Part shown: in pieces, positions 34,528-60,330 of the stretch
How the letters are laid out: the number at the start of each line of letters is the position of its first letter
How positions within the stretch are numbered: the stretch's first letter is position 1
From: a bacterium
GTDB lineage: Bacteria; Patescibacteriota; Minisyncoccia; Phycocordibacterales; UBA1550
Length of the DNA stretch: 64,000 nucleotides
Assembly (NCBI GenBank): GCA_030649835.1
Contig: JAUSES010000029.1
Location: 4,130 to 68,129 of the forward strand
Reading direction: 5' to 3'
Program-made: the position numbers and the translations under genes
Notes under the pieces: model-generated
Told to the model about the DNA's origin: nothing
What the model saw: only the letters and a program-made list of their open reading frames with translations
Database searches by the model: none

Positions 34528-34579
34528 AAATATAAAATAGTCAGCCTCTCTTGAGAGGCTGACTATTTTATATTTATTG

Positions 34580-34651
34580 TGCCCACGCCAGGATTCGAAC
34601 CTGGAATAACGGTTTCGAAGACCGTTGTGATATCCATTTCACTACGAGGGC
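34580..34651 (-). tRNA. tRNA-Arg (anticodon TCG)
   Basis: Acceptor with one T·T mismatch, anticodon loop CTTCGAA, T-loop TTCGAAT. Bidirectional terminator hairpin at 34541..34566. Confidence 0.7.
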
Positions 34652-42261: not shown

Positions 42262-42414
42262 GAGTACAGTATACAACTGACGACTCACAACTACCAACCA
42301 ACTGACTGACTGGCGCATTTGGCCTTCGGCCAAATGCGCTTTAACGTGCGTTTTTGTAGACCACACACCCCCAGTATCTAGCCAGGAAATTGCATCCTTC
42401 GAATCGTCTTTTGA

Positions 42415-42520
42415 ATTAGCAAATTCACGTCTTGGACGCAGACTCTCAGTAGACACTCCTGGGAAGCAATCCAGTGAGTTGGTACTTAATCCTGGATTGC
42501 TTCGCCTTGCTCGCAAAGAC
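42415..42520. repeat. family-2 element (partial copy): …attcacgtcttggacgca…cctggattgcttcg…ctcgcaaagac
   Basis: Homologous to 57650..57765 and 60225..60330. Confidence 0.6.
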
Positions 42521-42636
42521 GGAGTTTGAAGTTATATAAGGTGTGAGGTGTTACGCGTTTTTTAGTTGTTAGTTGTAAATTGTATCTCGTTAGTTGTATC
42601 TTGTCAGTTGAGAGTAGTTAGTGGTATTATTTCCCC

Positions 42637-42891
42637 ATGAGCTCGTCAAGCAAATATATTGTCATTACCGAATCCCACGACCTGGACGACGGCCCGATGG
42701 ACTCTGCTACAAAAGCTCATGAGGAGGCTGACGAGGCGTCCCTTCTTGCTCTTGAAAAACAAGGCATTTCTATTCTTAGTGAAGAAAGCAGTCCTGCAAG
42801 CGATGAACATCGCGACAATTTTGTTGAAGAATTAATGAATAACAGTGGTATTGAGATAGTTTCTAGTGTTGATAATGAAGAGGAGTTTTAA
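42637..42891 (+). CDS. small acidic hypothetical protein
   Basis: ORF; D/E-rich. Confidence 0.4.
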   Translation: MSSSSKYIVITESHDLDDGPMDSATKAHEEADEASLLALEKQGISILSEESSPASDEHRDNFVEELMNNSGIEIVSSVDNEEEF

Positions 42892-42902
42892 TATAAAATA
42901 AT

Positions 42903-44315
42903 ATGGTAGCAACATTTGTTCTTGTCTATATGCTGATGATGATACCAATAGGTATCTATGCATCAAAGCGGGTCAAGTCTTCTCAGGATTTTGCACTCGC
43001 GGGCAGGCATTTGCCTTTTTCTATGGCAATGGCGACCGTGTTTGCCACATGGTTTGGTTCAGAGACATTTATGGGCGCGGGGTCACGCATGGCAGAGGGG
43101 GGCTTTCTTTCTGTTATTGAAGATCCGTTCGGCGCAGGGCTTTGTCTCATACTCATTGGTTTCTTTTTTGCAAAAAAACTCTACGCGCGTCACAACCTCA
43201 CTATCGGTGACTATTTTCACGAGCGCTACAACAAAGTTGTCGCGACAATGCTTTCCGTTGCAATCATTCTCACCTATTTTGGTTGGGTGGCTGCGCAGTT
43301 TGTCGCGCTCGGCATCATCCTCAATCTGCTCCTCGGTATCCCAGCAATAACCGGAATGCTCATTGCGGCAATTATCATCGTAATCTACACCTACATCGGC
43401 GGTATGTGGGCGGTGTCTATTACTGACACCGTGCAAATGGCGGTAATAGTCATTGGTCTTATTGTTATTTTAGTTGAGGTGCTTTCTCAAAACGGTGGTG
43501 TTTCGTCTATTATTGCAAACACTCCTTCTGACTTTTTTAGAGTAACCCCAAGCGATGCCACCACAAAAGACTGGCTTGCATGGGTCGCCGCATGGATGAC
43601 CATCGGGCTTGGGTCTATTCCCCAACAAGATGTGTATCAGCGTGTCATGTCTGCAAAGTCTGCAGTAATCGCAAAGTGGGCATCGGTCTCTGCGGGGGTT
43701 CTTTACTTCACTATTGCGCTTATTCCACTTACGCTTGGGCTCATCGCTCGCATAAAATATCCCGAGCTCGTGATAAGCGACCCGCAACAACTCCTCCCTA
43801 CACTTATTTTGGACAATACAAACATGATCACGCAAATATTTTTCTTTGGTGCACTTCTCTCTGCCATTATGAGCACCGCGTCCGGCGCGCTCCTCGCTCC
43901 CGCAACACTCCTTGGAGAAAATGTGATTAAGCCATTTTACAACAATATTTCTGACAAAACTCGTCTCTCTATTATTCGTTTCTCTATTATTGTTGTTGCT
44001 TTGGGAGCACTTGCCCTTGCTTCATCTCAAGGGAGTATTTATGAGCTAGTTAGTGGCGCGTATTCAATAACTCTTGTTTCAGCATTTATTCCGCTGGTGT
44101 TTGGGCTCTACACACACAAAGCAAATAGTCTGGGGGCCCTCTTTGCGATTATTCTTGGTGCGGGGGGTTGGCAATTTACCGAGCTCTACGTTACAGACCC
44201 GATGGTTCCCGCAACACTTGTTGGTTTAGGCCTTAGTTTCTCGGGAATGCTGCTTGGGATTTTACTTGAGAAACATATTCACAAGGTAACTCATCACTTT
44301 AGGAAAACAACTTGA
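42903..44315 (+). CDS. sodium:solute symporter (SSS) family transporter
   Basis: ~13 TM helices; PutP/PanF-like N-terminal region with GRxL and GSETFMG motifs. Confidence 0.75.
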   Translation: MVATFVLVYMLMMIPIGIYASKRVKSSQDFALAGRHLPFSMAMATVFATWFGSETFMGAGSRMAEGGFLSVIEDPFGAGLCLILIGFFFAKKLYARHNLTIGDYFHERYNKVVATMLSVAIILTYFGWVAAQFVALGIILNLLLGIPAITGMLIAAIIIVIYTYIGGMWAVSITDTVQMAVIVIGLIVILVEVLSQNGGVSSIIANTPSDFFRVTPSDATTKDWLAWVAAWMTIGLGSIPQQDVYQRVMSAKSAVIAKWASVSAGVLYFTIALIPLTLGLIARIKYPELVISDPQQLLPTLILDNTNMITQIFFFGALLSAIMSTASGALLAPATLLGENVIKPFYNNISDKTRLSIIRFSIIVVALGALALASSQGSIYELVSGAYSITLVSAFIPLVFGLYTHKANSLGALFAIILGAGGWQFTELYVTDPMVPATLVGLGLSFSGMLLGILLEKHIHKVTHHFRKTT

Positions 44316-44329
44316 AAACAAAAGGAACA

Positions 44330-44445
44330 TTTGGGACAGGAAGAACCGAGAGACAAGTGAACGCCCAATCGCTACGCGATTGGGCGTTCACTTGTCTCTA
44401 TTCCTTGTTCCCACCCGTCCCAAACGTTCCCCCTGTCCACGCGTA
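44330..44445. repeat. family-T palindromic element copy 2 (gggacagg…agagacaagtgaacgcccaatcgctacgcgattgggcgttcacttgtctct…gtcccaaacgttcc…cctgtcc)
   Basis: Hairpin with a GCTACGCG apex; likely terminator of the transporter gene. Confidence 0.6.
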
Positions 44446-44481
44446 TTGCATTTTTAGGCAAGATATGCTACAGTACTGTCA

Positions 44482-44745
44482 ATGATTACGACAAAGCAGA
44501 AACAAACTATTATCAAGAAAGCGCAGGTTCATGCGACAGATACTGGCTCACCAGAGGCTCAGGTTGCTATTCTTTCAAAGAGTATTGACCTTCTCGCTCT
44601 TCATTTGAAGAAAAACCACAAGGACAACCATTCAAGACGTGGCCTCCTTCAGATGGTTGCAGATCGTCGCACACACTTGAACTACTTGAAGCGAAAGAGT
44701 AAAAATCGCTATGAGGTGCTCGTCAAGAAGATCGGCCTCAAGTAA
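44482..44745 (+). CDS. rpsO: 30S ribosomal protein S15
   Basis: 87 aa (…GSPEAQVAILSKSIDLLALHLKKNHKDNHSRRGLLQMV…). Terminator hairpin at 44878..44908. Confidence 0.9.
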   Translation: MITTKQKQTIIKKAQVHATDTGSPEAQVAILSKSIDLLALHLKKNHKDNHSRRGLLQMVADRRTHLNYLKRKSKNRYEVLVKKIGLK

Positions 44746-45024
44746 CGAATTCCCCATTTTTGCGTATTTCTTTGTTGCTCGTTTTGTTTGCTCTCGCGAA
44801 GTACTGTTCGTACATCTTGGTCGCAAACATCACTCGCGCCTCGAACTACACTAAAAATGAGAAATTCTGGCCATAAGAAACTCCGCTTCGCGGAGTTTCT
44901 TATTTTCTCGCTTCATGCGATACTATTTGTGGGTACAACTAATCATTTTTAATAAACGAGTCACTGGCATTTTTTGTATTTTCTAATGGCTAGTGGCCAA
45001 CAACTAACAACTATTTTATATATG

Positions 45025-45615
45025 GCAATTATCAAACAAAAAGAACAGCGCGTTGCAATGTTCATTGACGCACAAAACCTTTATCATAGCGCTCGCAATC
45101 TATACGGAGCAAGAGTTAATTTCGGCGCAGTGCTTAAAGAAGCAGTGGCAGGCAGGCACCTCGTGCGCGCTATCGCATACGTCATCACCACAGAAGGTGA
45201 AGACGAGAAAAACTTTTTTGAAGCATTAAACTCCCTCGGTATTGAAACGAAAACCAAAGACCTTCAAATCTTTTTTGGTGGAGCAAAAAAAGCCGACTGG
45301 GACGTGGGTCTTGCGGTGGATGCTATTCGTCTCGGCTCAAAAGTGGATGCGGTGGTGCTCGCATCGGGCGATGGTGACTTTGTTCCGCTCGTAGAATATT
45401 TAAAATTTATGGGAACACAGGTTGAAGTCATCACCTTTGGACGCTCAGCATCAGGCAAGCTCCGTGAGGTTGCCGATGACTTTATCGATATGTGCGATGA
45501 CCAGCGCAAATATCTCCTCGGCTCTCGTGGAGGAAACTCAAACGGTGGAAACACTCGTCGCCCTGCTCGCAAGCAAGCACCTCGCGGAAGGAAAGAACCT
45601 CCAAAGACAGAGTAG
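45025..45615 (+). CDS. NYN/LabA-like domain protein (PIN-like nuclease fold)
   Basis: VAMFIDAQNLYHSAR … VVLASGDGDFVPLVEYLK. Terminator at 45633..45658. Confidence 0.65.
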   Translation, partial: AIIKQKEQRVAMFIDAQNLYHSARNLYGARVNFGAVLKEAVAGRHLVRAIAYVITTEGEDEKNFFEALNSLGIETKTKDLQIFFGGAKKADWDVGLAVDAIRLGSKVDAVVLASGDGDFVPLVEYLKFMGTQVEVITFGRSASGKLREVADDFIDMCDDQRKYLLGSRGGNSNGGNTRRPARKQAPRGRKEPPKTE

Positions 45616-45672
45616 AAAATTCAAAAAATAAGCCCGACACTTGCGTGTCGGGTTTTTTGATTGCTTTCGCAA

Positions 45673-45873
45673 TCAAATTATTTCAGTTCTTGAAATGTCG
45701 TTGTGAATTGGTCTTTTGTCTTGTTTTTGGGCAAGTGCGGCAAATTCTTCCCTCCTCTTTTTTTGATCTATCTCATGTGCCATCATGCGTTGTGCAAATT
45801 TCCCAGCACCCGGTGACCCCGTGTGTGGATGTGTTTGTTGTGTGGCCCCTTGTTTCACTATCTGATTGCTCAT
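45673..45873 (-). CDS. small hypothetical protein (66 aa)
   Basis: GGAGAAGAT immediately upstream of the ATG. Confidence 0.4.
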   Translation of the reverse strand: MSNQIVKQGATQQTHPHTGSPGAGKFAQRMMAHEIDQKKRREEFAALAQKQDKRPIHNDISRTEII

Positions 45874-46003
45874 ATCTTCTCCAATTTTGGAACAAAAAAA
45901 TCAACAGATTGCTCTGTTGAACCAGCCCACACCCTAACACACTAGACATAAAGTTGCAAGTCCGCGCTTTGATAGCGCGCCTGAACAGGCTATAATACAT
46001 GCA

Positions 46004-46993
46004 ATGGAACGAATGATCCCCCACAAAAAATTATTGCCGGGTGTGTACCAAGGAACACCTGAGCAGTTTGACCAAAAGAAAGATGCTGGTCCGCGTCTCT
46101 TTCGTACTATGAAAATGGACGTTGCCGATGCAGTAAAAAACCAAAATGAAACGGCTGTTTCCATAGCGATAGCTGAGGAAAAGAAGAAGGCAGTCGCGCG
46201 GGCAAAAGAGGCAGAGCAGAAACCGACAGTGGCCTCTGCGCCTCCTGCGCCGAAGCCTATTGGGCGCATCATTGTTGTGATTATCGTTTTGCTCGTGATC
46301 GCGCTTACGGGGCTTGCCTCCGTGTATCTTTTGCCAAAAATTAAACAAATAAACCTTCCCACGATTTCTTTTCCTTCGTTTAGTAAAGCAGAAAAAGAAA
46401 GTGCTGTGGTTATACCGATCGTGCCCACACTACTTCCTGCACTCATTCCTGTTCAATACGAAAAGCGTTTTGATATGAGCATGGAGTCAAGAGAGGGTAT
46501 TCTTTCTGGGGTCGCAGGAGCACTGACGGAGGAGCTTCCCTTGGGGGCGATGAAGAACATCTACTTTAGCGAAAAGGCGGGTAGTGCCATTTCATCCTCT
46601 CGTTTTTTTAGTTTTTTTGGAGTTCAAACTCCCGATATTCTCAACCGCTCACTTGAAAAACCTTTTATGGTAGGGCTCGTGGGCGACACCACGGGAAAGC
46701 CTGCGCCATTTCTCATATTAAAAGTTTCCTCATATGAAGCTGGTCTTGCGGGGATGCTTGAGTGGGAGGCGGGGCTACCTGCTTTTTTCAGCACAGTGTT
46801 TGGGTCAAACATCACACAGACAGCAACTCCCACAGCAAAGTTCCGCGATATTGTTATCCTAGAAAAGGATGCACGATTATTCACTCCCGCATTTGGAGAG
46901 CCCATTGCCTATGCATTTGCAAATCCAAATACTATTGTGATTGCTGGAAGTCGTACTGCGCTTGAAACACTTCTTCCGCTAAAAAATAATTGA
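46004..46993 (+). CDS. membrane-anchored hypothetical protein (single TM)
   Basis: Helix IIVVIIVLLVIALTGLASVYLL. Confidence 0.45.
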   Translation: MERMIPHKKLLPGVYQGTPEQFDQKKDAGPRLFRTMKMDVADAVKNQNETAVSIAIAEEKKKAVARAKEAEQKPTVASAPPAPKPIGRIIVVIIVLLVIALTGLASVYLLPKIKQINLPTISFPSFSKAEKESAVVIPIVPTLLPALIPVQYEKRFDMSMESREGILSGVAGALTEELPLGAMKNIYFSEKAGSAISSSRFFSFFGVQTPDILNRSLEKPFMVGLVGDTTGKPAPFLILKVSSYEAGLAGMLEWEAGLPAFFSTVFGSNITQTATPTAKFRDIVILEKDARLFTPAFGEPIAYAFANPNTIVIAGSRTALETLLPLKNN

Positions 46994-47091
46994 CATCCCT
47001 ATCCATATACCATAGTATCTTAATCAGAATACCTGTTCAAAAAACTAGTCACCATCAACCCACTTTCTACATTTTATCGAGGAGAAGTTAT

Positions 47092-47940
47092 ATGCAAGCT
47101 AAAATAATAAATGGTCATGAAATCGCAGAGAAAATACGTGCCTCATTAAAAAGTCAGCTTGAAGGGATTCAATTAAAACTCGGAATCCTCTGTTCAGATA
47201 CATCGCCTGCTTCAATCTCGTACCAAGAAACCCTCATAAAAATTGCTCGCTCGCTTGATATACAGGTGGAAATTGTTCGTTTCCAAAAGGGTACTCCCCA
47301 GGAGGCTTTTAAGACAAAAATCTCTGAGTGGAATGAGGACACTGAAATACATGGAATCTTTCTGCTGCAACCACTTTTTGAGGGTATTAATGTAAGCGAA
47401 CTTAGAGTGCTTATTCACCCCCTGAAAGATATTGAGTGTGTTCACCCATATAATTCGAGCCTTAAACACTTCTCGGAAGATCACGTTGGGTCGTGCACCG
47501 CAAAGGCAATAATGGAGATCTTAGAATCCACTGGTGTCCAGTTAGAGGGTGCGGAGATTGTGGTTGTGGGGCACAGTAACATTGTTGGACAGCCGGTAAG
47601 CAAGCTGCTTATTGAAAGAAATGCGACTGTCACAACCTGCAACAAAGCAACATCAAACAGGGGGCTTCTTCGTAATCACGTAGAGCGTGCCGAAGTGCTT
47701 GTAGTTGCCGTCGGTAAAGCAAACTGCATTCCAGGAGATTGGATAAGGGTGGGCTCTGTGGTTATTGATGTTGGGTTTAATGATGTTGGCAATGGAAAAG
47801 TTGCTGGGGACGTCGAATTTGCTGTTGCGCAAAAACGGGCCAGTTACATCACTCCTATGGTTGGTGGTGTGGGCCCAGTCACTGCAATTATTGCAATGAG
47901 GCAATTGCTAATTGCTTACAAATTGCAACAAAAAAAGTAG
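47092..47940 (+). CDS. folD: bifunctional methylenetetrahydrofolate dehydrogenase/methenyl-THF cyclohydrolase
   Basis: Start MQAKIING with GGAGAAG upstream. GHSNIVGQPVS…VGGVGPVT are FolD motifs. Confidence 0.8.
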   Translation: MQAKIINGHEIAEKIRASLKSQLEGIQLKLGILCSDTSPASISYQETLIKIARSLDIQVEIVRFQKGTPQEAFKTKISEWNEDTEIHGIFLLQPLFEGINVSELRVLIHPLKDIECVHPYNSSLKHFSEDHVGSCTAKAIMEILESTGVQLEGAEIVVVGHSNIVGQPVSKLLIERNATVTTCNKATSNRGLLRNHVERAEVLVVAVGKANCIPGDWIRVGSVVIDVGFNDVGNGKVAGDVEFAVAQKRASYITPMVGGVGPVTAIIAMRQLLIAYKLQQKK

Positions 47941-48034
47941 TTTATGAGACAGCTCGTTTACTCAAGCCATTTTGGCAGAAGTAGACGAGCTGTTTTTATT
48001 AAAATTTAAGAATACGAGAGATGCTCGCTCCTTT

Positions 48035-48643
48035 TTATATAAACGAATTTACTCCTGATGCCGCACGAATTTGCTGTAATGCCCCCAGTATGTAGTCGCG
48101 CTTTTCTTTGCAAAACCCAACATCCGTAATACCATCCAAGTTCACCACCACGTTGACCTTAGAACCAAGTAGACATGCGAGCAATAAATATCGACCTACT
48201 TCAACATCGCTTATCACTGACGGATTACAAATTTTTCCCAACCTCTCCGCCACAAGAAGAACCTTCAAACATATTTTAAATACTGCGAACGGAACTTCTG
48301 ATGAAGCCTTCAATGCTTCCTGTATGGCTTTTGCTCGTATTTCAGTTTCAATAGAATTTTCTTTGGGCAACCTGCGTGCCACTATGACCGCTTTGAAACT
48401 AGCGGCATCCTGTTCTGCAAGATTAAGAAGATTACGTCGGTTTGTTTCTAAATTTACAAGAATTAATCGAATCTCTTCATCGACCTTAGTAAATTTTTGT
48501 TTACCAAGAGTAAGATTACAGACCATTGCCAATAAGGCAACCCCTTGAGCCCCTGTTATTGCTGTTACGACTCCCCCACCAGGCGTAGGGTTAGCGCTAG
48601 CAAGATCATCAAAATACTCCGCTATTGTCTGTTTACTAAACAT
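48035..48643 (-). CDS. formiminotransferase-cyclodeaminase C-terminal-like (methenyl-THF cyclohydrolase FchA-like) protein
   Basis: GGGVVTAITGAQGVALLAMVCNLTLGK. Confidence 0.65.
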   Translation of the reverse strand: MFSKQTIAEYFDDLASANPTPGGGVVTAITGAQGVALLAMVCNLTLGKQKFTKVDEEIRLILVNLETNRRNLLNLAEQDAASFKAVIVARRLPKENSIETEIRAKAIQEALKASSEVPFAVFKICLKVLLVAERLGKICNPSVISDVEVGRYLLLACLLGSKVNVVVNLDGITDVGFCKEKRDYILGALQQIRAASGVNSFI

Positions 48644-48737
48644 GATTGATTATCATCTTACCGTAACTATCACAAAGTATCTACATGGTCCTCCCTAAAT
48701 ATTGCATTTCATACTTCATATGATAAACTGTTCTCAT

Positions 48738-49097
48738 ATGATAAATACCGACGATCTCAAAAATACTCTTCTGGAAGAAAAGGCACGGCTCATGCTCGAG
48801 CTTTCTGGTGTTGGACATGAAAATCCTGAGATAGAGGGCGACTGGCAACCATCTGCGCCAGACTTAAATATCCCCACCGCAGACATCAATGATACCGCAG
48901 ACAGCATGGAAGCTTTTGAAGAAGCTGCTGCCATAGAAGTGGAGCTTGAAGCGCGACTTCTTGAAGTAGACTCTGCGCTCTCACGCATTGAAGCCGGCAC
49001 ATACGGCATTTGTCGCATCTGCGGAAGCGCCATCGAAGATGCGCGTTTGCATGCAAACCCCGCAGCACCAACCTGCATCGCGCACCGAGAAGGATAA
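48738..49097 (+). CDS. DksA/TraR-family C4 zinc-finger protein
   Basis: C-terminal CRICGSAIEDARLHANPAAPTCIAH, a four-Cys finger. A hairpin at 49082..49124 overlaps the stop. Confidence 0.65.
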   Translation: MINTDDLKNTLLEEKARLMLELSGVGHENPEIEGDWQPSAPDLNIPTADINDTADSMEAFEEAAAIEVELEARLLEVDSALSRIEAGTYGICRICGSAIEDARLHANPAAPTCIAHREG

Positions 49098-49201
49098 GTT
49101 GCTCCGCAACTTATCCTTCTCGGTGCGCACAATTGACCTGTGACAATTAACATGTGACGAATGCACCCTCTGTCAATTGTCAAATGTTAATTGTTAAACG
49201 T

Positions 49202-49218
49202 CCCCCCCCCTTTTTTTT
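49202..49218 (+). promoter_or_regulatory. C9T8 homopolymeric tract directly abutting the comM start codon
   Basis: cgtccccccccc tttttttt ATG. No Shine-Dalgarno sequence. Confidence 0.5.
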
Positions 49219-50751: not shown

Positions 50752-50900
50752 GGGAACGAGGGGGACACACGGGACAGGAAGAACGAAAAATATACGAAAC
50801 AACGCGCTGTCGCGTAGCGACTGCGCGCTTCTTCCCCGTGTGGGGTTCCCCTTGTGTGCCCCTGTTCTTCTTGTCCCAAATGTTTCCCCCCCCCCGCCCC
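50752..50900. repeat. family-T palindromic element copy 3 (gggacaggaagaac…cgcgctgtcgcgtagcgactgcgcg…gttcttcttgtcccaaatgtttccccccccc)
   Basis: Outer IR gggacaggaagaac/gttcttcttgtccc, a GCGTAGCG apex hairpin, and a terminal C9GC5 tract. Confidence 0.6.
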
Positions 50901-51974: not shown

Positions 51975-52217
51975 GGTTACCTCTGCTTTTATTCCAGCTT
52001 TCCTCGAGATGGAAAGACCAAAAATAGTCCACCACGACTTTTTTCGGGTAAACCTTGAAAAATATGAGTATTTCGCCCGGACTGCTTTCTTTTGCCCTCG
52101 TCCGAGGTCCTGTAATTTTGTAGAAATAGGTCTATATAATAGGTGCCGTTCGGTCGTACGGTCAGGTCGGGAAAAGTCGTGTTTTCTGTGAACCTGGGGC
52201 CAATCCCCATGGTTAAG

Positions 52218-52403
52218 GGTCGGTCCAAGATTTAATGTCTAGCAAAAACTTTAAAATTTACTGCGAAAATCATGAATCTCGAGGAGGCATATATCATATG
52301 CTGACAAGAGATTGATGATTTGCAGCGGAAATTTTAGGGTTTTGGCAGACAAACAAGCGCAAGCTGTATCTTTATGCCCTGTGTTTAAATCTTGGACCGA
52401 CCC
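52218..52403. repeat. long-range inverted repeat (gggtcggtccaagatttaa … ttaaatcttggaccgaccc) enclosing ~145 nt within a 580-bp intergenic region
   Basis: 18-19-bp perfect arms. Confidence 0.6.
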
Positions 52404-52484
52404 TGTTTAACGATAGCATAAATCATTACTGAAAAGGAGGGCTCTGGGGATATGTTGTGGACAACTTTTGGGTCGAAAATCCCT

Positions 52485-52512
52485 TGACTTTTCTATATAT
52501 TCTTGGCATAAT
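52485..52512 (+). promoter_or_regulatory. sigma-70-type promoter (TTGACT, 16-nt spacer, CATAAT) upstream of the 836-aa gene
   Basis: Consensus-like hexamers ~40 nt upstream of ATG 52554. Confidence 0.5.
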
Positions 52513-52553
52513 TCTATGTACATAAACACAAGCTTGTGTAATAATTCAAACTA

Positions 52554-55064
52554 ATGAACAACTCAAAAGAAACATTTGAATTTAAACCTCATCTGCAAGA
52601 AATTTCTGATGTAGAAGTCATCGGCACCCCTTCAACATTGGACTCAACAAACCCAAATAAGCCTGCGGAAGCAGCGAGCTACGGCATGGGTGCCCACTTT
52701 GAAAAGGCAGGAATCACAGCAGCAAGCTTTCCTGCTGAAAAACCAGAGGCGCCTGTCGCCTCTGCGGCAAACGAGACTTTTGAAAAAGGCACGGCCGGGA
52801 CAGTGAACGAGAATAAGGCTCCTCGCGGTGGAAGAGGGACAAAAGGGGCGCCAGATGAAATCAAAGAAGCTATTGAGGAGGCACAGAAAATAGAAGTCAA
52901 AATTGACCACGATTTTGCAAAACTAAAGAAGCACAAGGATGATCTCGTTCGTACGCTCGCCAAACTTCACCTTCAAGAAACTGAGGCCCTGAGGCGTGGG
53001 GTTTCTCTTGATCTTCAAAAAAAACTACGAGGCAAGGTAGATAGAGCTCAAGCAAGCCTTGATAAAATAAATGGCATTCTTCCAAAGACAACAGAAAATG
53101 GTGCGCCGAGCGAACATCAGGCTATTTTAAAAATAGTTGAAGATTATAGAAAAAATAAAGATGTCCTTAAAAAACTTTATTCAAAAATAGGAAAGGCAGA
53201 AAACGACCTTAAGAAAAAGCCGGGGGACGGCAGGATACAAGGAGAGGAAAATCGCGCTCAAGCAGAAAAGGCAATCGTGGAAACAAACCTTGCAAAAATT
53301 GCAGCCGATGCTGAGCAACTACTTGCAAAAACAGAGGCTCCATCGCTTTCAGAAGAGGCGGGGCTTTCATACACACACGCACAAGCTGTTGCCGACCGCA
53401 AGGAATGGGAAGAGCGTCACAAAAATGCGCAGGCAGATGCCGTGCTTGAATCAGTGCCAGCAGAGAATGAAATTGAGTTTGAGTCACAAGCAGTAGAAAA
53501 ATCAGCACAAGAAAACTACGCGGAGGGGTGGGAGCGTATTTGGGGTAAAAAAGAAACAGAAAAAAACAATTCAGAAATTCCCACCCTTACCGAGGTGGTT
53601 GAGGAGCCAATTGCAAAATTTGAATTGTCCGAAAGAGCGCGAAGTGGTCTCAACCCTGAACAACTAGAACTTTTTGAGAAGGTGCAGGAAGGAATTTCTA
53701 ATGCGGAAAAATCCGCCACAGAGCAAGTAAAAAAAGCAGGGATGCCAGAAAAAATGTTGGGTCTTTTACGCAAAGGTGGGGAGTCATATTCAAAGTTGCC
53801 ACTAAAAACAAAACTTCTTGTTTCTATAGCACTCTTTGGAGTAGCGTGGGCAGCAGGCGGAACCATTGCGAGCGTAGCAATAGGAGGTTCTGCTATCCAG
53901 CGCGCCCTCGGTGGTATGGCAACATTTGTCGCAGCAGAAGGGGCATTGAAAGCAAGTGCGGAAAAGGGTGGGGGTGGGCGTGGAAAATTTGAAAAATCTC
54001 GACACACCGCGGAAGCTCTGCTTGCCGGGTTCCTCGTTGGAGGTGGGGCACTCGGTCTTGCTATCAATAATGCTTTGGCTGAAGGACTCCCTTCTCATGA
54101 AACAGCAACCGCGCCTGTGGAAACTGATGCTGAAAAAATTGAAAAGTTGCGATCAGAAATAATGCCTAAAGCAAATCTTGCAGCGCTTGATACTGCACCA
54201 AATACTGACTACACTGCTGTCGCAGAGGCAGGGGATTCTCGTTGGACTCTCGTGGGCGAGGCCCTTGCCAAGGGCCCTTACGAAAAGGAGTTCAGTCTTC
54301 TTCCTCAAGGTCAGCAGGAATACGTCATTGATGCAATCAAGGATAAACTTACTGCGGGAATGACCGCGGAACAAGCGAATATGCTGAACGTAGGAGATGA
54401 AATTGATTTCAAAGAAATTTTTGCAGACAAGGATTTCATAGAGAAAACGTTTGCTGATGCGCAAAACCTCAGCACGCCGGAGCTCGAAAATATTGCGAAT
54501 TACAATCCTGATGAAGTTGCAGATGCGCCCACGGTTAAGGAAATTTTTGAACCTAAAGTAATGGATTTTTCTCCCCACGGTGCGCTTGAGGGGTCATCTT
54601 CTCCAGTACCAACAATTCCATCAGAAATTCTTCCGGGAGATCCTCCAAAAATTATAGAAAACTTCTCTCTTGAAAACCTTTCTACTCCAGATGCTCCCAC
54701 GCTAACTGAAAATCTAGCTTCAATATCTCCTATTTTTACGCCGAGCGATCCACAGATTCTTATTTACGCAAAAGAGGTAACAGACAATAATATACAATCA
54801 GTTTTTGGTAAGGTGGGTGGGTTTCTTGGATTTGGTTCTTCAGACGGGCAAGAAATATTTAAAAACTTTGCCGACAAGCCGGTTGACCAATTTATTGGAA
54901 CGAAGGCTCCGTCAGTACTTACTGTGGATGAAGGAAAAATGAAAGAACTAATTGAAAAATCAGTTGAGCAGACGCATGTCAAATCAATGCCTGGAGAAAA
55001 GGTTGTGGATTATTTAAACCGCTCTGCAGCAATCAACATTGAAAGGTTCACAAAAAACGGTTAA
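52554..55064 (+). CDS. large coiled-coil protein (836 aa) with central Gly/Ala-rich TM segments
   Basis: ORF. The N-terminal ~400 aa are K/E-rich helical. TM-like segments LLVSIALFGVAWAAGG… and LLAGFLVGGGALGLAI. Confidence 0.5.
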   Translation: MNNSKETFEFKPHLQEISDVEVIGTPSTLDSTNPNKPAEAASYGMGAHFEKAGITAASFPAEKPEAPVASAANETFEKGTAGTVNENKAPRGGRGTKGAPDEIKEAIEEAQKIEVKIDHDFAKLKKHKDDLVRTLAKLHLQETEALRRGVSLDLQKKLRGKVDRAQASLDKINGILPKTTENGAPSEHQAILKIVEDYRKNKDVLKKLYSKIGKAENDLKKKPGDGRIQGEENRAQAEKAIVETNLAKIAADAEQLLAKTEAPSLSEEAGLSYTHAQAVADRKEWEERHKNAQADAVLESVPAENEIEFESQAVEKSAQENYAEGWERIWGKKETEKNNSEIPTLTEVVEEPIAKFELSERARSGLNPEQLELFEKVQEGISNAEKSATEQVKKAGMPEKMLGLLRKGGESYSKLPLKTKLLVSIALFGVAWAAGGTIASVAIGGSAIQRALGGMATFVAAEGALKASAEKGGGGRGKFEKSRHTAEALLAGFLVGGGALGLAINNALAEGLPSHETATAPVETDAEKIEKLRSEIMPKANLAALDTAPNTDYTAVAEAGDSRWTLVGEALAKGPYEKEFSLLPQGQQEYVIDAIKDKLTAGMTAEQANMLNVGDEIDFKEIFADKDFIEKTFADAQNLSTPELENIANYNPDEVADAPTVKEIFEPKVMDFSPHGALEGSSSPVPTIPSEILPGDPPKIIENFSLENLSTPDAPTLTENLASISPIFTPSDPQILIYAKEVTDNNIQSVFGKVGGFLGFGSSDGQEIFKNFADKPVDQFIGTKAPSVLTVDEGKMKELIEKSVEQTHVKSMPGEKVVDYLNRSAAINIERFTKNG

Positions 55065-55076
55065 TATTACACAAAC

Positions 55077-55254
55077 ATGAATCCCGTTAGAGATGAAAGC
55101 GTTATGTTTTTGTCACCAATAGGATATACTGAAGCTATTACTATTAACAGATTGATATAATAAGGATACGGAAACTTGTCCCGTTAGAAGCCGCGAGAGA
55201 ATCGCAACGCTGAGTTGCTTCTAACGGGATAAATTTCCTATCTCTAACGGGATG
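55077..55254. repeat. family-1 TIR element copy D (ATGAATCCCGTTAGAGAT … TTTCCTATCTCTAACGGGATG) with a nested inner copy of the arms (cccgttagaag…cttctaacggg)
   Basis: The right terminus ATG (55252) is the start codon of the downstream gene. Confidence 0.7.
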
Positions 55255-55584
55255 AATAACACAGAACTCAGAGAAATTTTAATAAAAGAACTTGGCATTG
55301 AGGGACTGCCCGAGGAAGCGCAGGATGAAATCGTGGGCAAGCTTGGGGAGATTATTTTGAAGTCGCTTACGGTTGCGATTTTTGACAAGCTTTCTGGCGA
55401 GGCGCGAGAGGAATTTGAGCGCATTAGTGAAGCGGGGGATTCTGATTTGATTCAGGAATTTCTTGAAAAAAGTGTTCCAGACTTACATCTTCTTATGGAA
55501 GAGGAGGTCAAAAAAACGCTAAATAACTTTGCAGACAAGGGTGCGAGCGGAGAGGAGAGACCAAAAGAAAGGGGAGAGATATAG
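55252..55584 (+). CDS. small acidic hypothetical protein (110 aa)
   Basis: ORF. Followed by a 62-bp perfect palindromic terminator at 55591..55652. Confidence 0.45.
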   Translation: MNNTELREILIKELGIEGLPEEAQDEIVGKLGEIILKSLTVAIFDKLSGEAREEFERISEAGDSDLIQEFLEKSVPDLHLLMEEEVKKTLNNFADKGASGEERPKERGEI

Positions 55585-55666
55585 AGTCAGCACAAAAAAG
55601 AAACAGATGCCTCGCCAAAACTTTGGCGAGGCATCTGTTTCTTTTTTGTGCTAAAGTAGCTACACC

Positions 55667-57610
55667 ATGGAACACCTCGCTCATCTAAATGAAAAACAAA
55701 AAGAGGCGGCGATGCACAAAAATGGCCCTCTTCTCATCATTGCAGGTGCGGGAACTGGCAAGACGAGCACACTCACGCACCGTATTTTAAATCTCGTAAA
55801 GGAAGGTATTGCGCCGAGCGAAATACTCGCCATCACCTTTACCAACAAAGCCGCAAAAGAAATGGGCGACCGCGTAAGTGAGCTTTTTTTGAAACACGGT
55901 TTTGATGCCGGCGTACGCTACGGCGACGCGCGTCCCTTCATTGGCACGTTTCACTCTCTTGGCGTGCACATTCTCCGTGCGCATGCGCAGGTGTTTGGGC
56001 TCACAAAACATTTCACTATTGTAGACAAAAATAGCGCAAGCTCGCTTATCAAGGAGGCGATGAAGGAGCAGGGGCTGGATTCAAAACAGTTTCCTCCGGA
56101 CCGCATTGCGGGCGTCATCTCTCGGCAAAAGGGCGCGCTTGTTACGCTTGCTCAATATAAAAGCGATGTGGGAAATGCGTACTTCCCGATGATTGTTTCC
56201 GCTGTATGGGAGCGCTATGAGCGTCTCCTCGCACGCGAAAGCGCGCTTGATTTTGATGATCTTATTTTAAAAACAGTAATCCTTCTTCGTGACCACGCTG
56301 AAATCCGCCGTGCATATCAATCACGCTGGAAGTACGTTCATATCGATGAATACCAAGACACCAACGCAGTGCAGTATGAAATGGCGCGCTTGCTCGCGGG
56401 TGAAACAATGAACATTTGCGCGGTGGGGGACGGCGACCAAAACATTTACAGCTGGCGTGGCGCAAACCTTCAAAACATTTTGAATTTTGAAAATGACTAC
56501 AAGGGCGCACAGACAATTCTTCTCGAGGAAAATTATCGCTCTACACAAACCATTCTCGCTGCTGCAAACGACATTATCAAAAAAAACACGGTACGTAAAG
56601 AAAAAAATCTTTTTACCAGAAATGCAGAGGGCGACAAAATTTCTCTCATTGAAAGCTACGATGAAGGGGGCGAGGCGCGCACCGTAGGAGAAAAAATAAA
56701 ACACCTAATAGACAGTGGCACCGACCCAGAAGCTATTGCCGTGCTCTACCGTGCAAACTTTCAATCCCGCGCACTTGAAGAAGCGTTTCTTATGATGGAG
56801 ATACCGTACCAAGTCCTTGGTGTTCGTTTTTTTGAACGTAAAGAAGTGAAGGATGTTTTATCTTTCATTCGCGCGGCTCTCAACCCCGAAAGTCTGTCGG
56901 ATATCAAGCGCATTATTGATTCACCTCCGCGCGGTATCGGAAAAGCGACCCTCATGAAAATGTTTGCAAAAGACGAAGCGAGCCTCACGCCCGCTGCCCA
57001 AAAGCGCGTGAAGGAATTTTGGGCACTTCTAGAGTCAATCAAGGAATTCGCTCTTGTAGAAAAAACCTCCAATCTTATTAAATTTGTTTCTGAAAAATCA
57101 GGACTTGAGACATCTCTCAAGACAGGGACCGACGAGGACAATGACCGTCTTGAAAATATTCACGAGCTCGTAACGCTCGCCACAAAGTACGACTTTCTCC
57201 CACCAGAAGAGGCAGTGGAAAAACTTTTGGGAGATGCAGCTCTCGCAAGCGACCAAGACTCAATGATGAAAAGCTCCCGTGCAGTCAAAATGATGACGGT
57301 GCACGCTGCAAAAGGCCTTGAATTCCCTTACGTATTTGTGACAGGGTTGGAGCAAGATTTGTTTCCGCACAAACGCATGGGGCCAGGAACTGGCTCAAAA
57401 GAAGACAGCGAGGAGGAGCGCCGGCTTTTTTATGTGGCTATCACGCGCGCAAAGAAAAAACTTTATCTTTCGTACGCATCCGTACGCACTATTTTCGGAC
57501 AGCGCCAGGTAAATGCTCCGTCAGAATTCCTATCCGACATCGACGACGCTCACACCGAGCACGAAGTTGGCAACACCGACAACGAGCCGGTGATTAATAT
57601 CAGCTGGTAA
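55667..57610 (+). CDS. pcrA: ATP-dependent DNA helicase, UvrD/PcrA/Rep family
   Basis: Motif I AGAGTGKT, motif II DEYQDTN, motif VI VAITRAKK. Confidence 0.85.
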   Translation: MEHLAHLNEKQKEAAMHKNGPLLIIAGAGTGKTSTLTHRILNLVKEGIAPSEILAITFTNKAAKEMGDRVSELFLKHGFDAGVRYGDARPFIGTFHSLGVHILRAHAQVFGLTKHFTIVDKNSASSLIKEAMKEQGLDSKQFPPDRIAGVISRQKGALVTLAQYKSDVGNAYFPMIVSAVWERYERLLARESALDFDDLILKTVILLRDHAEIRRAYQSRWKYVHIDEYQDTNAVQYEMARLLAGETMNICAVGDGDQNIYSWRGANLQNILNFENDYKGAQTILLEENYRSTQTILAAANDIIKKNTVRKEKNLFTRNAEGDKISLIESYDEGGEARTVGEKIKHLIDSGTDPEAIAVLYRANFQSRALEEAFLMMEIPYQVLGVRFFERKEVKDVLSFIRAALNPESLSDIKRIIDSPPRGIGKATLMKMFAKDEASLTPAAQKRVKEFWALLESIKEFALVEKTSNLIKFVSEKSGLETSLKTGTDEDNDRLENIHELVTLATKYDFLPPEEAVEKLLGDAALASDQDSMMKSSRAVKMMTVHAAKGLEFPYVFVTGLEQDLFPHKRMGPGTGSKEDSEEERRLFYVAITRAKKKLYLSYASVRTIFGQRQVNAPSEFLSDIDDAHTEHEVGNTDNEPVINISW

Positions 57611-57649
57611 ATAATAGACCTCCTTCAAAAGTCGTAATCTTACCACCGA

Positions 57650-57765
57650 GTGTCTTTATCTGTCTTTGCGAGAAGGTACCCCGACGTGGCAATCTACAGG
57701 TTATTCCTGGATGCTTCTGAATCAGCAGATTCACGTCTTGGACGCAAGCCTCGCAAAGACACGAG
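57650..57765. repeat. family-2 element copy (gtctttgcgag … gattcacgtcttggacgca … ctcgcaaagac)
   Basis: Terminal IR GTCTTTGCGAG/CTCGCAAAGAC. Confidence 0.6.
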
Positions 57766-57929
57766 GAAGGACTTTTGAAAGAGGTCTAATATTTACAATT
57801 TTGTGCTTCCTCTACCATGTCTTCGCACATACATCCCAGCAATAGAACGCTATAGCGTTCTATTGCGCGGAGGAGATTTTTATAAAATATTGTGGTTTTT
57901 GAAGGGTGGTTGGTATACTCATAACATCT

Positions 57930-58799
57930 ATGGTTTATGCGAAAAAATCACTGGGGCAGAATTTTTTAAATTCGAAAACTGTTGCACGTGACATTGTGCG
58001 GGCAGGGGAACTTTTGCCTACCGACACCGTACTTGAGATCGGCCCAGGGAAGGGGTTTCTTACAGTCGAGCTTCTTGCGACGGGGGCCCGTGTGGTTGCA
58101 GTAGAAAAAGACGACAGAATGATACCAATACTTCAGGAAAAGTTTGCAAATGAGATCAAAAAAGGCCAACTTTCGCTCATTAATGCTGATATCATGGATG
58201 TTTTTCAAAATAAAGGACCGTCCTTTATTTTTGGGGCAAAGAAGGAGAAAATAAAGGACGGTCCTTTATTTGAATACAAACTTGTGGCTAATATTCCATA
58301 CTATTTAACAGGACAAATTATTCGCACATTTTTAGAAGCGGGAAAAAAGCCCGAGCGAATGATCTTGATGCTCCAAAAAGAAGTAGCAACACGCATCGTT
58401 GCACGCGACAAAAAAGAAAGCATCCTTTCCATCGCGGTAAAAGCCTATGGCACACCAAAGCTTATAAAAAAGGTCCCTGCGCGCTACTTTACTCCCTCAC
58501 CAAAGGTTGACTCTGCTATTCTTGCTATTTTAAATATTTCAGGAAAACATTTTCTCGACAAAAAATCGGAGGAACATTTTTTTGAAATTGTTCGCGCTGG
58601 CTTTGCTCACAAAAGAAAATTCCTTGCAGGAAATTTAAAGGAATTTTTTAAAGAAAAAACGGCAGATATTCTCAAAGGTGCAAATATTTCAGAAACTGCG
58701 CGAGCAGAAAACCTCACTCTGGAAAATTGGCTCGCTATTGCGAAACGAAGTCCACGGGCACACCAGTGTCTGAAGACAAGGATGTCCCCGCGGTCATAA
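57930..58799 (+). CDS. rsmA: 16S rRNA (adenine1518/1519-N6)-dimethyltransferase RsmA/KsgA
   Basis: MVYAKKSLGQNFL…LEIGPGKGFLT…NIPY. The 3' end may be shorter than the ORF. Confidence 0.8.
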   Translation: MVYAKKSLGQNFLNSKTVARDIVRAGELLPTDTVLEIGPGKGFLTVELLATGARVVAVEKDDRMIPILQEKFANEIKKGQLSLINADIMDVFQNKGPSFIFGAKKEKIKDGPLFEYKLVANIPYYLTGQIIRTFLEAGKKPERMILMLQKEVATRIVARDKKESILSIAVKAYGTPKLIKKVPARYFTPSPKVDSAILAILNISGKHFLDKKSEEHFFEIVRAGFAHKRKFLAGNLKEFFKEKTADILKGANISETARAENLTLENWLAIAKRSPRAHQCLKTRMSPRS

Positions 58800-59223
58800 T
58801 TGAGCCTATTGCAGGAGGTAGAGTGAAGCATCCATCCGGCACTGTCACCAAGCATAATGGTGCTGCGCCCTTGGTATACGACCCTAAAATCCAATTACCT
58901 GGAGGTTCTGTTGAAAGCCATGTATACCCTGCCCACATCCCAACAGGGCTATAAACTGTATGGGTATAATCGTACATAAAAGTTTCTGCTGTTTGTATAA
59001 ATTCTCCCCCCGCAGGCGGTCCTACAACCACATAGGCAAGGGCTGCTCCCTCTGAGCATGTACACGGAGTTGTAGACAAAATCTGCCCGCCAAAACCTAA
59101 AAGTGCTCCTGCTTTTTGTGTTTTTGCGCTAAACGAAACTCCAACAACCAAAATAGCAATCGCAAAACTAAGCAAAACTGTTTGCGCTCGGGTTTTTTTG
59201 AAAATTTTAAATAGAAATTTCAT
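58735..59223 (-). CDS. secreted/membrane-anchored hypothetical protein
   Basis: N-terminal hydrophobic helix; Cys-containing motif TTPCTCSEGA. Confidence 0.4.
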   Translation of the reverse strand: MKFLFKIFKKTRAQTVLLSFAIAILVVGVSFSAKTQKAGALLGFGGQILSTTPCTCSEGAALAYVVVGPPAGGEFIQTAETFMYDYTHTVYSPVGMWAGYTWLSTEPPGNWILGSYTKGAAPLCLVTVPDGCFTLPPAIGSIMTAGTSLSSDTGVPVDFVSQ

Positions 59224-59224
59224 A

Positions 59225-60175
59225 TTACAGAAGTTTCAACGAAAAAGGTTTTGCATTGCTTACACCATTTTCATTCATTATATATACCGACACAGGAATT
59301 GAGAAATTTTTTATTTTTGGCGTACTGGTCGCATTGTTGAAAAGATTTTTCGGGATTACAAAACTCATGGTAGCACCATCTATAGATGAAACATTTTTAA
59401 AAGCACCGATGCCTGCGACCATCATTGTGTTGCCCGTGCTCAAAAATCCACTACCGATAACTACTACAGTATCTCCCGTTGAGACAGCCGTAGGCAAAAC
59501 ACTCTCTATTTTTGGCCCCGCTGTCACACCGTCTGTCACAATAAAAAATGCATCTTTATTGCTTTCTCCGCGCGCATTTTTTACAAAAAGAGGATACACG
59601 CCTTTTGGAATTTCTGGAACTTTTAAAGAAATAGACTGTCCGTTCCACGAGGTCGCCCATGAGACAGCGTGGTCAGCGCCAAAATACACCGTGTTGTCCT
59701 TTGGCGTAAAACCAGCGCCTGAAATTGAAATCGTGGTCCCCGGCTTTGCAGAATACTGCGAAGGGAACATCACGACTACTTTTCCTTTTTCAACTGCAAG
59801 TGTAGGAAGTTCTTTCAAAGGAATGTTTGTCGCTGGTGCTCCTATAGTGAGTGCCTTTATTTTTTCTCTTGTTTTGGGGCCAAAAATTCCAGTGCCGAAG
59901 GGAAGCCCATTAGGAGTGAGTATTTCCGCGCGATATTTCTCTTGGAATTTTACCAACCCGCGTTTTGTCCCAGCGCCAAAATAACTGGTTTCATTACCCA
60001 CCGACCCCACACCGCTTTCCGCCACACGCGTATCGCTATCCGTATTCAAAAAAACTTGAAGCGCACGCACGTCATCCCCCCGCATTCCCAAAGAAAGTGT
60101 GCGGGTGAATGTTGCCCCAAAAACGACATTAGGAAAAACGAGAACGGCTACAAAAAATATCCCTAAAAACTTCAT
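59225..60175 (-). CDS. secreted protein with a peptidoglycan-binding (PG_binding_1-like) domain and IPT/TIG-like beta domains
   Basis: LSLGMRGDDVRALQVFLN…GYFGAGTKRGLVKFQEKY. Start MKFLGIFF. Confidence 0.55.
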   Translation of the reverse strand: MKFLGIFFVAVLVFPNVVFGATFTRTLSLGMRGDDVRALQVFLNTDSDTRVAESGVGSVGNETSYFGAGTKRGLVKFQEKYRAEILTPNGLPFGTGIFGPKTREKIKALTIGAPATNIPLKELPTLAVEKGKVVVMFPSQYSAKPGTTISISGAGFTPKDNTVYFGADHAVSWATSWNGQSISLKVPEIPKGVYPLFVKNARGESNKDAFFIVTDGVTAGPKIESVLPTAVSTGDTVVVIGSGFLSTGNTMMVAGIGAFKNVSSIDGATMSFVIPKNLFNNATSTPKIKNFSIPVSVYIMNENGVSNAKPFSLKLL

Positions 60176-60224
60176 TTCTAAATGATACCATATTATTTTT
60201 GGAACCATTCACCTCACTACGTAA

Positions 60225-60330
60225 ATTTAGTTTCAGTCTTTGCGAGCGAAGCAATCTAGGGTCCTGGATAGCGCCCGAGACGTGAATCTGGTGATTCAGC
60301 CACGCACTACGTGCTCGCAAAGACAGGGAT
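60225..60330. repeat. family-2 element copy in inverse orientation
   Basis: gtctttgcgagcgaagcaatc…cgagacgtgaatctg…ctcgcaaagac. Confidence 0.6.

Follow-up and report, generated by a model that had tools for sequence, protein, structure and literature searches.

What are the three short elements that lie between genes of the 64-kb stretch of contig JAUSES010000029.1 (the whole stretch that was analysed, hereafter the window), each with inverted ends and a common core? A sequence-only reading of this DNA had described them as intergenic elements of about 100-130 bp with an 11-bp terminal inverted repeat, and had taken them for miniature inverted-repeat transposable elements (MITEs) or for structured RNAs. 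Our analysis revealed a dispersed, symmetric repeat at the DNA level with presence/absence polymorphism, repeatedly nested in other palindromes. The three copies are fairly probably decayed and mosaic members of widespread non-autonomous palindromic DNA repeats, of the kind of the repetitive extragenic palindromic (REP) sequences, their hairpin-forming doublets (REPINs) and the bacterial interspersed mosaic elements (BIMEs).

Three copies in the window

The three copies were found close to where they had been placed (Table 1), and they form a genuine non-coding, multi-copy and hairpin-forming family as proposed, with measured sizes of 89-117 nt instead of the range given above. The terminal 11-mer GTCTTTGCGAG, or its complement, is exact in 5 of the 6 arms; with up to one mismatch allowed, it has 6 matches in the window against 1.16 expected, a count reached in 0 of 100 shuffles, and the sixth of these matches, at 38186, lies inside a coding sequence and is unrelated. 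Moreover, the copies align beyond the short inverted repeat, as all three also carry an inner arm of the form C[GA]..GCAATC / GATTGC..CG and the core, whose 18-mer ATTCACGTCTTGGACGCA stands without mismatch at 42423 and 57729 and with 3 mismatches on the minus strand at 60270-60287, that is, 3 matches against 0.02 expected. A scan of the 64-kb window with the 7-mer and the inner arm found no further copy. The shortness of the terminal repeat, and nothing else, speaks for a chance resemblance or an assembly artefact, to which we give practically no weight, in view of the shuffle controls, of the hundreds of independent occurrences, some of them in isolate genomes and complete plasmids, and of an independent short-read assembly that reproduces the flank at 100% identity.

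The predicted folds are strong on both strands in all three copies, with z from -2.4 to -4.4. Copy 2 is enclosed by an outer inverted repeat (2 matches against 0.02 expected), and the two together (57616-57787) make a 172-nt composite hairpin with a minimum free energy of -68.2 kcal/mol and z of -5.65. For copy 3, the closest outside match is found at loci L144, L222 and L231, with 86% over 63 nt.

As for the gene setting, copy 1 lies in a divergent region of 375 nt, with XerC (minus strand, start 42261) on one side and an open reading frame (ORF) at 42637 on the other, that is, upstream of the recombinase gene and not after it as had been stated; the head of copy 2 begins 52 nt past the stop codon of PcrA/UvrD (57610); and copy 3 lies in a 178-nt divergent region between a TIG/PG-binding gene (59225-60208, minus strand) and a gene at 60387-62042. 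The frame that runs through copy 1 as an 85-codon N-terminal extension of XerC reads LRARRSNPGL... and is non-coding, as had been argued, because the real start is MSHNIPQ at 42261 and the 120 homologues are mostly 309-311 aa long.

Table 1. Positions in the window of the three copies, their parts and related features
Feature	Position	Strand	Sequence or remark
Copy 1	42405-42521	+	CGTC...GACG ends
Copy 1, left head	42405-42411	+	shortened to CGTCTTT, core directly after
Copy 1, core	42412-42439	+	AGAC extends core to 42443; spacer next
Copy 1, inner hairpin (complete)	42463-42474 / 42491-42504	+	GAAGCAATCCAG / CCTGGATTGCTTCG
Copy 1, tail	42510-42520	-	CTCGCAAAGAC, after linker CCTTG; exact 11-mer
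Copy 2	57661-57761	+	TGTC...GACA ends
Copy 2, head	57662-57672	+	GTCTTTGCGAG, exact 11-mer; then linker AAGGTACCCCGA
Copy 2, inner arm	57685-57700		CGTGGCAATCTACAGG; loop TTATT next
Copy 2, degenerate inner arm	57706-57717		CCTGGAT-GCTTC
Copy 2, core	57718-57745	+	3' linker position; AAGC next
Copy 2, tail	57750-57760	-	exact 11-mer
Outer 18-bp inverted repeat	57616-57633 / 57770-57787		AGACCTCCTTCAAAAGTC / GACTTTTGAAAGAGGTCT; encloses copy 2
Copy 3	60236-60324	-	AGTC...GACA ends; parts listed on plus strand
Copy 3, head	60236-60246	+	exact 11-mer
Copy 3, inner arm	60247-60260		CGAAGCAATCTAGG
Copy 3, shortened inner partner	60263-60269		CCTGGAT
Copy 3, core	60271-60298	-	3 substitutions
Copy 3, mini-hairpin segment	60299-60313		tail next
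Copy 3, tail	60314-60324	-	exact 11-mer
Solo core variant	31987-32014	-	TGAATCAGCTGATTCATGCCTTGGGCAC; in T-arm of partial tRNA-Pro copy

Occurrence across phyla

A genome-wide search for the terminal repeat and the core had been suggested. With the pattern GTCTTTGCGAG-N55-85-CTCGCAAAGAC and one genome per species, more than 112 genome loci in at least ten phyla were found, where about one match is expected by chance according to our own arithmetic (596e9 x 31 / 4^22). The hosts include Gamma- and Alphaproteobacteria (with Legionella, Methylobacterium and Sphingomonadales), Chitinophagaceae/Flavobacteriia of the Bacteroidota, Omnitrophota, Chloroflexota, Nitrospirota, Deferribacteraceae, Bacillota, Neomarinimicrobiota, Fischerbacteria and many Patescibacteria; several of them are isolates, and several genomes hold more than one locus. 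The shared design is (C)GTCTTTGCGAG - linker - CG[AA|CG|TG]GCAATCC(AG) - loop - (CT)GGATTGC[TT|CG|CA]CG - linker - CTCGCAAAGAC(G), and about a quarter of the pattern matches have only the 11-mer in common with it, such as the tandem repeats of TCTTTGCG in Clostridia and Blastocatellia. The family also occurs, without annotation, on plasmids of cultured Novosphingobium, Methylosinus and Methylobacterium, with at least 40 places on the Novosphingobium plasmid pSA1.

Two variants of the head can be distinguished. The A-variant GTCATTGCGAG...CTCGCAATGAC is found at a minimum of 120 loci in IMG/VR, where no T-variant was found; therefore the T-variant of the window is a minor form of the family. 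An A head and a T head can also co-occur within one element. Furthermore, some hosts hold the family in larger composites or clusters, since in Legionella quateirensis three hairpin elements stand in tandem with a 176-nt period (L014, 1770-2204), and in the metagenome-assembled genome (MAG) loci L001, L005 and L071 of Legionella sp. the element has a further inverted repeat, TAAGG(A/T)AA..., on its flanks.

Unit, dimer and spacing

The unit of the family is an arm of about 30 nt, (C)GTC[A/T]TTGCGAG + linker + CG..GCAAT + CC(A/T)G. The palindrome runs one or two bases past the 11-mer: a C stands at position -1 in 72 of 88 elements and a G at +1 in 72 of 88, which gives a CGTC tag at both outer ends. 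Two linker classes prevail, of 5 nt (144 arms) and of 11-12 nt (97 arms), and mixed dimers of the two unit types are the commonest (97 of 197). Many linkers hold a mini-hairpin of their own, so that the fold of the family is a junction and not a plain stem. The inner stem goes on past GCAATC by 3.2 bp on average against 0.6 bp in shuffles, mostly as CAG/CTG. Of 208 parsed elements, 129 have a matched variable inner dinucleotide, and mismatched mixed dimers are common. The loop between the arms ranges from 8 to 72 nt (median 25). Solo units exist as well, for example at 5923-5953 of locus L360, upstream of pcrA in a close relative.

Should the elements be MITEs, they would be deletion derivatives of an insertion sequence (IS) with terminal inverted repeats GTCTTTGCGAG..., moved by the cut-and-paste reaction of its transposase, and in fact their shortness, inverted ends, multi-copy state, intergenic location and presence that differs between relatives all agree with this. 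However, 83 of 88 elements have flanks with no direct repeat (length 0) and hence no target-site duplication; the head-to-tail distance peaks sharply at 80-100 nt and the spacing at 60-120 nt, and 277 of 327 head-to-next-tail spacings are at most 120 nt (349 heads, 344 tails); and a search for autonomous forms found no longer version with a gene between head and tail. In 2.6 Mb of family loci, neither an IS element nor a transposase was seen next to the arms or in the space that they enclose, and clustering all ORFs of the 112 listed loci gave no protein family that recurs beside the elements, the only cluster spanning more than two loci having 9 members in 8 loci. Since solo half-units exist too and complementarity extends along the whole element rather than its ends only, the elements are very unlikely to be MITEs in the strict sense that had been suggested. 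MITEs such as Correia/NEMIS, ERIC and RUP have inverted ends and are multi-copy, intergenic and transcribed into hairpins; the present elements resemble them in these features and in size range, and differ by having no target-site duplication and no parent IS and by being hairpins as a whole.

Strand symmetry

The other proposal, a structured non-coding RNA, would be a cis-regulatory element or small RNA acting in one orientation, for example by stabilising 3' ends, terminating transcription or binding a protein. The strong predicted folds are consistent with it, as are the enrichment at gene 3' ends (convergent 18, tandem 25, divergent 3, by crude ORF calls, on which the two strand counts below also rest), some compensatory pairing in the arms, where the matched inner pairs CG/CG and TG/CA are about threefold over random assortment by our own arithmetic, and the core hairpins, which are paired in all cells with compensatory changes at 3 pairs. 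On the other hand, both strands fold equally well and the element is a near-perfect palindrome. The asymmetry of the linkers shows no orientation bias with respect to the upstream gene (52:44), and the sense strand has no excess of G-U over A-C (9:15, p 0.31). Moreover, no terminator-like site was called at any of the three copies, whose tails precede acgagg, agggat and ggagtt with no U-tract; at the gathering threshold, the only matches of the Rfam covariance models, in the window as in 18 loci, were to tRNAs and RNase P, and at E<=1 nothing fell on the elements, the weak miRNA-model matches at 58193-58286 under lenient settings falling on a different, AT-rich palindrome in ksgA. The neighbouring genes are unrelated, and the core stands in coding sequences in both orientations. 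An RNA gene or regulator therefore seems unlikely as the nature of the family, though incidental effects at the RNA level may exist.

Comparison with close relatives

The comparison of the window with its relatives bears on the gain of the elements. Between PcrA and KsgA, two relatives whose PcrA is 91% identical have spacers of only 19 and 36 nt, with nothing but a conserved TGGTATACT promoter inside, while the spacer in the window is 320 nt long (57611-57929; ATG of KsgA at 57930), the extra sequence holding the outer repeat with copy 2 and another palindrome; at least four palindromic modules, nested or adjacent, are present in this spacer, and two other relatives have whole genes at this junction. 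Likewise, the region upstream of XerC is 55-156 nt long and without the element in three relatives against 375 nt in the window. Copies 1 and 2 thus appear, from this comparison of sequences, to be recent gains, because close relatives, with protein identities of 85-92%, do not have them at the orthologous sites. Copy 3 lies at the point where synteny with the relatives ends; the idea that it marks an inversion of the neighbouring 551-aa gene was dropped, as that gene is not homologous to the neighbour in the relatives. A short-read contig of the same organism ends 8 nt before copy 2 and begins inside the palindrome upstream of pcrA, breaks that are expected for repeats.

It may also be asked whether the elements are binding sites of host proteins that selection keeps at each locus, such as a TGAATC-N4-GATTCA operator of a dimeric regulator or sites for nucleoid or recombination proteins. 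Indeed TGAATCAGCTGATTCA forms a palindrome of 16 bp without any mismatch, two of the copies (1 and 3) are set between divergent promoters, and copy 1 adjoins xerC. Nevertheless the same modules are found in-frame in genes, in a tRNA fragment and nested in other hairpins; the flanking genes are unrelated, and relatives with the same genes are without the sites; and an arm spacing of 8-72 nt is ill-suited to a dimer that binds double-stranded DNA. We consider such sites a most improbable origin of the elements.

Several other palindromes were observed in the window and in relatives. Upstream of xerC in a relative (L364, 2455-2500) there is a hairpin AGCGTGCAG-ATTGCGAG-ATGC-TTCG-GCAT-CTCGCAAT-CTGCACGCT, which has the octamer ATTGCGAG/CTCGCAAT in common with the head of the family and carries neither the GTC tag nor the inner arm. 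A PaaX_M/Cas2-like gene at 21506-22111 of the window (21464-22181 with its flanks) stands between near-perfect hairpins GCAATAAACAGC-TATA-GCTGTTTATTGC; in a close relative a gene that has the same PaaX_M/Cas2-like annotation in Pfam, with similar flanking hairpins, lies exactly between pcrA and ksgA (L356, 8040-8745), and a solo hairpin of this type is found at 57838-57869 in the pcrA-ksgA junction of the window. The gene and its hairpins look like a small mobile cassette, with its scar in the window. Within ksgA itself, a 24-nt palindrome AAAATAAAGGAC(C/G)GTCCTTTATTT has two in-frame copies (58207-58271) and occurs also at 9658-9705; the copies encode ...KGPSFIF...KIKDGPLF... in a loop of variable length among relatives, and KsgA has 289 aa in the window against 265-272 aa in relatives. 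This is a palindromic insertion inside a gene, from yet another family. Finally, many long perfect palindromes with arms of 24-37 bp stand at gene ends (55589-55652, 42311-42340, 44349-44399, 18329-18403 and 34521-34582), of which the one between the DUF5663 gene and pcrA keeps its position in relatives with a different sequence; they are probably terminators or the repeats that had been listed as a separate 'family 1'.

The core as a nested mini-hairpin

The conserved core, with which the family had been described, is indeed present in all three copies; it is, however, a double mini-hairpin of 28-32 nt that is independent of the hairpin family and not its defining feature. Its consensus, (C)TGAAT[C/T]A[G/C]C[A/T][G/A]ATTCA-CGTCTTGG[A/G]CGC, makes two adjacent hairpins. 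In the window copies it takes the linker position, 3' of the inner hairpin in copy 2, as at locus L081 of a Minisyncoccia genome, and 5' of it in copies 1 and 3, as at L144. A metagenome scan with a 17-nt core pattern gave at least 120 loci, mostly chance matches to so short a pattern; once the adjacent first hairpin is required, about 20 further distinct contexts remain, in which the core is standalone and intergenic, abuts a tRNA gene (L116), sits in the loop of an unrelated hairpin (L211, L220) or is in tandem with similar mini-hairpins (L137, L152, L209).

Across 24 distinct instances of the core, 240 of 240 pair cells are paired, and three pairs change on both sides: in helix 1 a C-G pair turns into T-A (14:10), and the other two belong to helix 2. 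Helix 2 is largely fixed by the search pattern, and its double changes come from the instance L081b and from the tRNA-fragment copy of the window, both of which were found independently of that pattern. In the latter (31987-32014), the second hairpin is kept through double compensatory changes, CGTC/GACG to TGCC/GGCA.

In related bacteria the core also stands in-frame in five conserved genes, namely in the N-terminal tails of GyrA, ribosomal protein S5 and a DEAD-box helicase, ahead of the first Pfam domain, between EF-G_D2 and the IF-2 domain in IF-2, and in a C-terminal extension of L10. It encodes ESADSRLGR there, or RPRRESADS / RPRREFGNS on the other strand. By analogy, the core behaves like a miniature counterpart of the Rickettsia palindromic elements (RPEs), which are reportedly 100-150 nt long (Ogata et al. 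2000). Like the RPEs and the intragenic REPs, it (and the core only) is in-frame in tolerant tails and linkers of replication and translation genes, but it differs from the RPEs by its size of about 30 nt, its sequence and its host in the Patescibacteria.

The solo variant in the tRNA-fragment repeat also means that the present family is not fully distinct from what had been set apart as 'family T', which is probably the tRNA-Pro fragment array at 31976-32500. This array has an intact tRNA-Pro(tgg) at 32314-32385 (minus strand), several partial copies of its 3' end and three tandem 49-nt repeats, an arrangement that resembles att-site duplications; in another partial copy a different hairpin of about 57 nt is inserted (32107-32165), matched at 85% in L217.

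Relation to known repeats

REP-type repeats are usually described as lineage-specific and tied to a lineage-specific transposase, the REP-associated tyrosine transposase (RAYT). Among the known systems, the closest are the CGTC-tagged REPs. Di Nocera, De Gregorio & Rocco 2013 (BMC Genomics 14:522, PMC3733652) describe palindromic units with a stem of 8-9 bp and a loop of 4-5 nt, the first two stem positions being complementary A-T / T-A; a CGTC or TGTC (or CCTC) tag, a body from AT and a CCA tail; head-to-head dimers with the tags outside and spacers of 20-100 bp, heterodimers being frequent; singletons also; locations downstream of ORFs and between convergent or unidirectional genes, some dimers being set into larger palindromes; units inside genes of replication and repair; no dedicated transposase; and hosts in 5 phyla. 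The present family agrees with these in many respects. It has the outer CGTC tag, the TGTC of copy 2 being a variant that the same paper gives; its body, in the A-variant, opens with AT(T) and closes with (A)AT, after which comes CCA; its tags point outward with spacers of tens of nt; it forms mixed heterodimers; in the family at large the elements stand mostly downstream of ORFs, in some cases within larger palindromes; no dedicated transposase is known; and it is found in Alphaproteobacteria, Bacteroidota and beyond. As to the rule for the stem start, the A-variant ATTGC...GCAAT + CCAG fits it, while the T-variant of the window, TTTGC...GCAAT, breaks the first A-T pair. With at least ten phyla, Patescibacteria among them, the host range exceeds the 5 phyla of that paper. 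We therefore take the family to work like the dimers of the CGTC-type REPs and probably to descend from them, and do not count it as a member of a described family.

Several points weigh against this assignment. The body of the unit, ATTGCGAG-CGNAG-CGAAGCAAT, is not self-complementary and so makes no palindrome as the definition of a REP requires. A lone unit has no fold (-2.7 kcal/mol, z +0.1 for the A-variant; -2.2, z +0.7 for the T-variant); its stem is 5 bp at best, and only the dimer folds. The control folds, which are back-translations of our own from the peptide lists of PMC3733652 together with known sequences, gave -9.0 kcal/mol with z -5.5 for CGTC-1 and -10.9 with z -4.8 for CGTC-3. 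The body ATTGCGAG...CGAAGCAAT is in none of the four subfamilies as rebuilt from those lists, that is, CGTC-1 ATTCCCGC (VIPAKAGI), CGTC-2, which is like ATTCTGAAC (RHSELVSGS), CGTC-3 ATTGCCGGG (VIAGLDPAI) and CGTC-4 ATTCCGTGG (VIPWLDHGI), and CGTC-3 has only the head CGTCATTGC and the tail GCAATCCA in common with the present family. On the other side, the family may be identical to a published CGTC subfamily, given that N. aromaticivorans is listed under CGTC-2 in the same source. Copy 2 is downstream of an ORF, but copies 1 and 3 are divergent and promoter-side, unlike the family norm; the conservation of the outer stem in the family set follows from the search pattern by construction; MAGs make up many of the host records, and errors of binning may affect them, though an origin of the cross-phylum matches from contaminated bins only is contradicted by the isolates and by the window itself; and mobility rests on the presence and absence between relatives, a pattern that differential loss would give as well. 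We know of no enzyme for CGTC-tagged repeats.

REPINs and their RAYT transposases were reportedly described by Bertels & Rainey 2011 and Nunvar 2010. REPINs are similar to the present family in having two inverted units of about 25-30 nt that form one long bulged hairpin and in being dispersed, extragenic and non-autonomous, and they are supposed to move as single-stranded DNA hairpins (summarised in PMC3733652 and PMC6006769). They differ by a GTAG tag, palindromic units, a RAYT gene in single copy that has its own REPs on both sides, and mostly one lineage each, whereas the present family has no GTAG at its ends and nearly the same sequence across phyla. No transposase, RAYT (Y1 HUH) or other, was found among the scanned ORFs of the window, and no neighbour gene recurs in the 112 listed loci.

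The BIMEs of enterobacteria are intergenic mosaics in which small palindromic units alternate in orientation and two unit types pair preferentially, and their partners are gyrase, IHF and Pol I. The present family is alike in being a mosaic of two preferentially pairing unit types and unlike in its sequences and hosts.

Other systems were tried and rejected, judged by their signatures as generally known: a retron non-coding RNA (no reverse transcriptase nearby), an integron attC site (no RYYYAAC/GTTRRRY boxes), self-cleaving ribozymes (no conserved ribozyme cores) and CRISPR repeats (no regular array). In the literature, a text search for the arm sequences gave only primer coincidences, searches for REPs in the Candidate Phyla Radiation (CPR) and for REPIN/RAYT across phyla gave nothing relevant, and the RepRanger paper and the HUH phylogenomics paper hold nothing on CGTC elements.

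A possible mechanism

In the non-autonomous palindromic repeats that we favour, two arms stand head-to-head with their CGTC tags outside and a variable loop between them, and a single strand, of DNA or of a transcript, is predicted to fold into a hairpin of 80-100 nt with a junction at the linkers, a position that in this Yonathbacteria-like genome is taken by the core. For their movement, the following scheme may be proposed. Spread would occur at the DNA level as single-stranded hairpins, perhaps moved in trans by an enzyme encoded elsewhere, in analogy to the Y1/HUH RAYT moving REPINs, and landing would be preferred in or beside existing hairpins at gene ends. Effects on the host would be incidental, such as mRNAs that end in long hairpins, DNA that is prone to form cruciforms, and hot spots of insertion and rearrangement. 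A transposition-like mechanism of spread specifically can only be put forward tentatively on this analogy, and we lean somewhat against it. Still further goes the speculation, which we find rather doubtful, that the arms of about 30 nt, from Legionella to Patescibacteria, would be the recognition site of a phylum-spanning, trans-acting enzyme on single-stranded DNA, the mobiliser of the CGTC-tagged repeats, and that the core would be an ultra-small mobile element of Patescibacteria inserting into hairpin loops, tRNA genes and, in-frame, essential genes.

CGTC-tagged repeats have been without any mobiliser since 2013. The window presents a CGTC-tagged hairpin family that folds only as a dimer, whose arms have almost the same sequence in ten or more phyla and which appears to be still being gained in a minimal Patescibacteria genome; hence the question of the mobiliser becomes a practical comparative problem, that of the genes that track the repeat across phyla, for which tiny genomes can serve as a filter. 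If a trans-acting enzyme were indeed at work, the list of candidate genes would be short, because the elements appear to be gained in genomes of about 1 Mb or less (one related contig has 784 kb). For annotation, the elements give rise to spurious small ORFs and to spurious N-terminal extensions such as that of xerC in the window; assemblies from short reads break at them; and, jointly with the nested 30-nt module, they insert short peptides into ribosomal proteins, GyrA and IF-2.

Host and other features of the window

Judged from the names of homologous sequences, the window is a chromosomal stretch of a bacterium of the Patescibacteria (CPR), because the homologues of PcrA/UvrD and XerC at 85-93% identity carry the names Candidatus Yonathbacteria, Parcubacteria and Minisyncoccia. 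Its genes are unremarkable, with NusA, trigger factor, ClpP, RNase Y, KsgA, PcrA, XerC, an SSF symporter and a restriction-modification enzyme of the MmeI type; the last, at 12782-15517, is a full-length fused enzyme with 5 of 5 MmeI Pfam domains. At 1-4100 on the minus strand there are coding repeats with a 51-nt period, which give 17-aa repeats of the type NTTG...NTA.G; presumably these resemble the hep_Hag or YadA-head motif, and they probably belong to a large surface protein.

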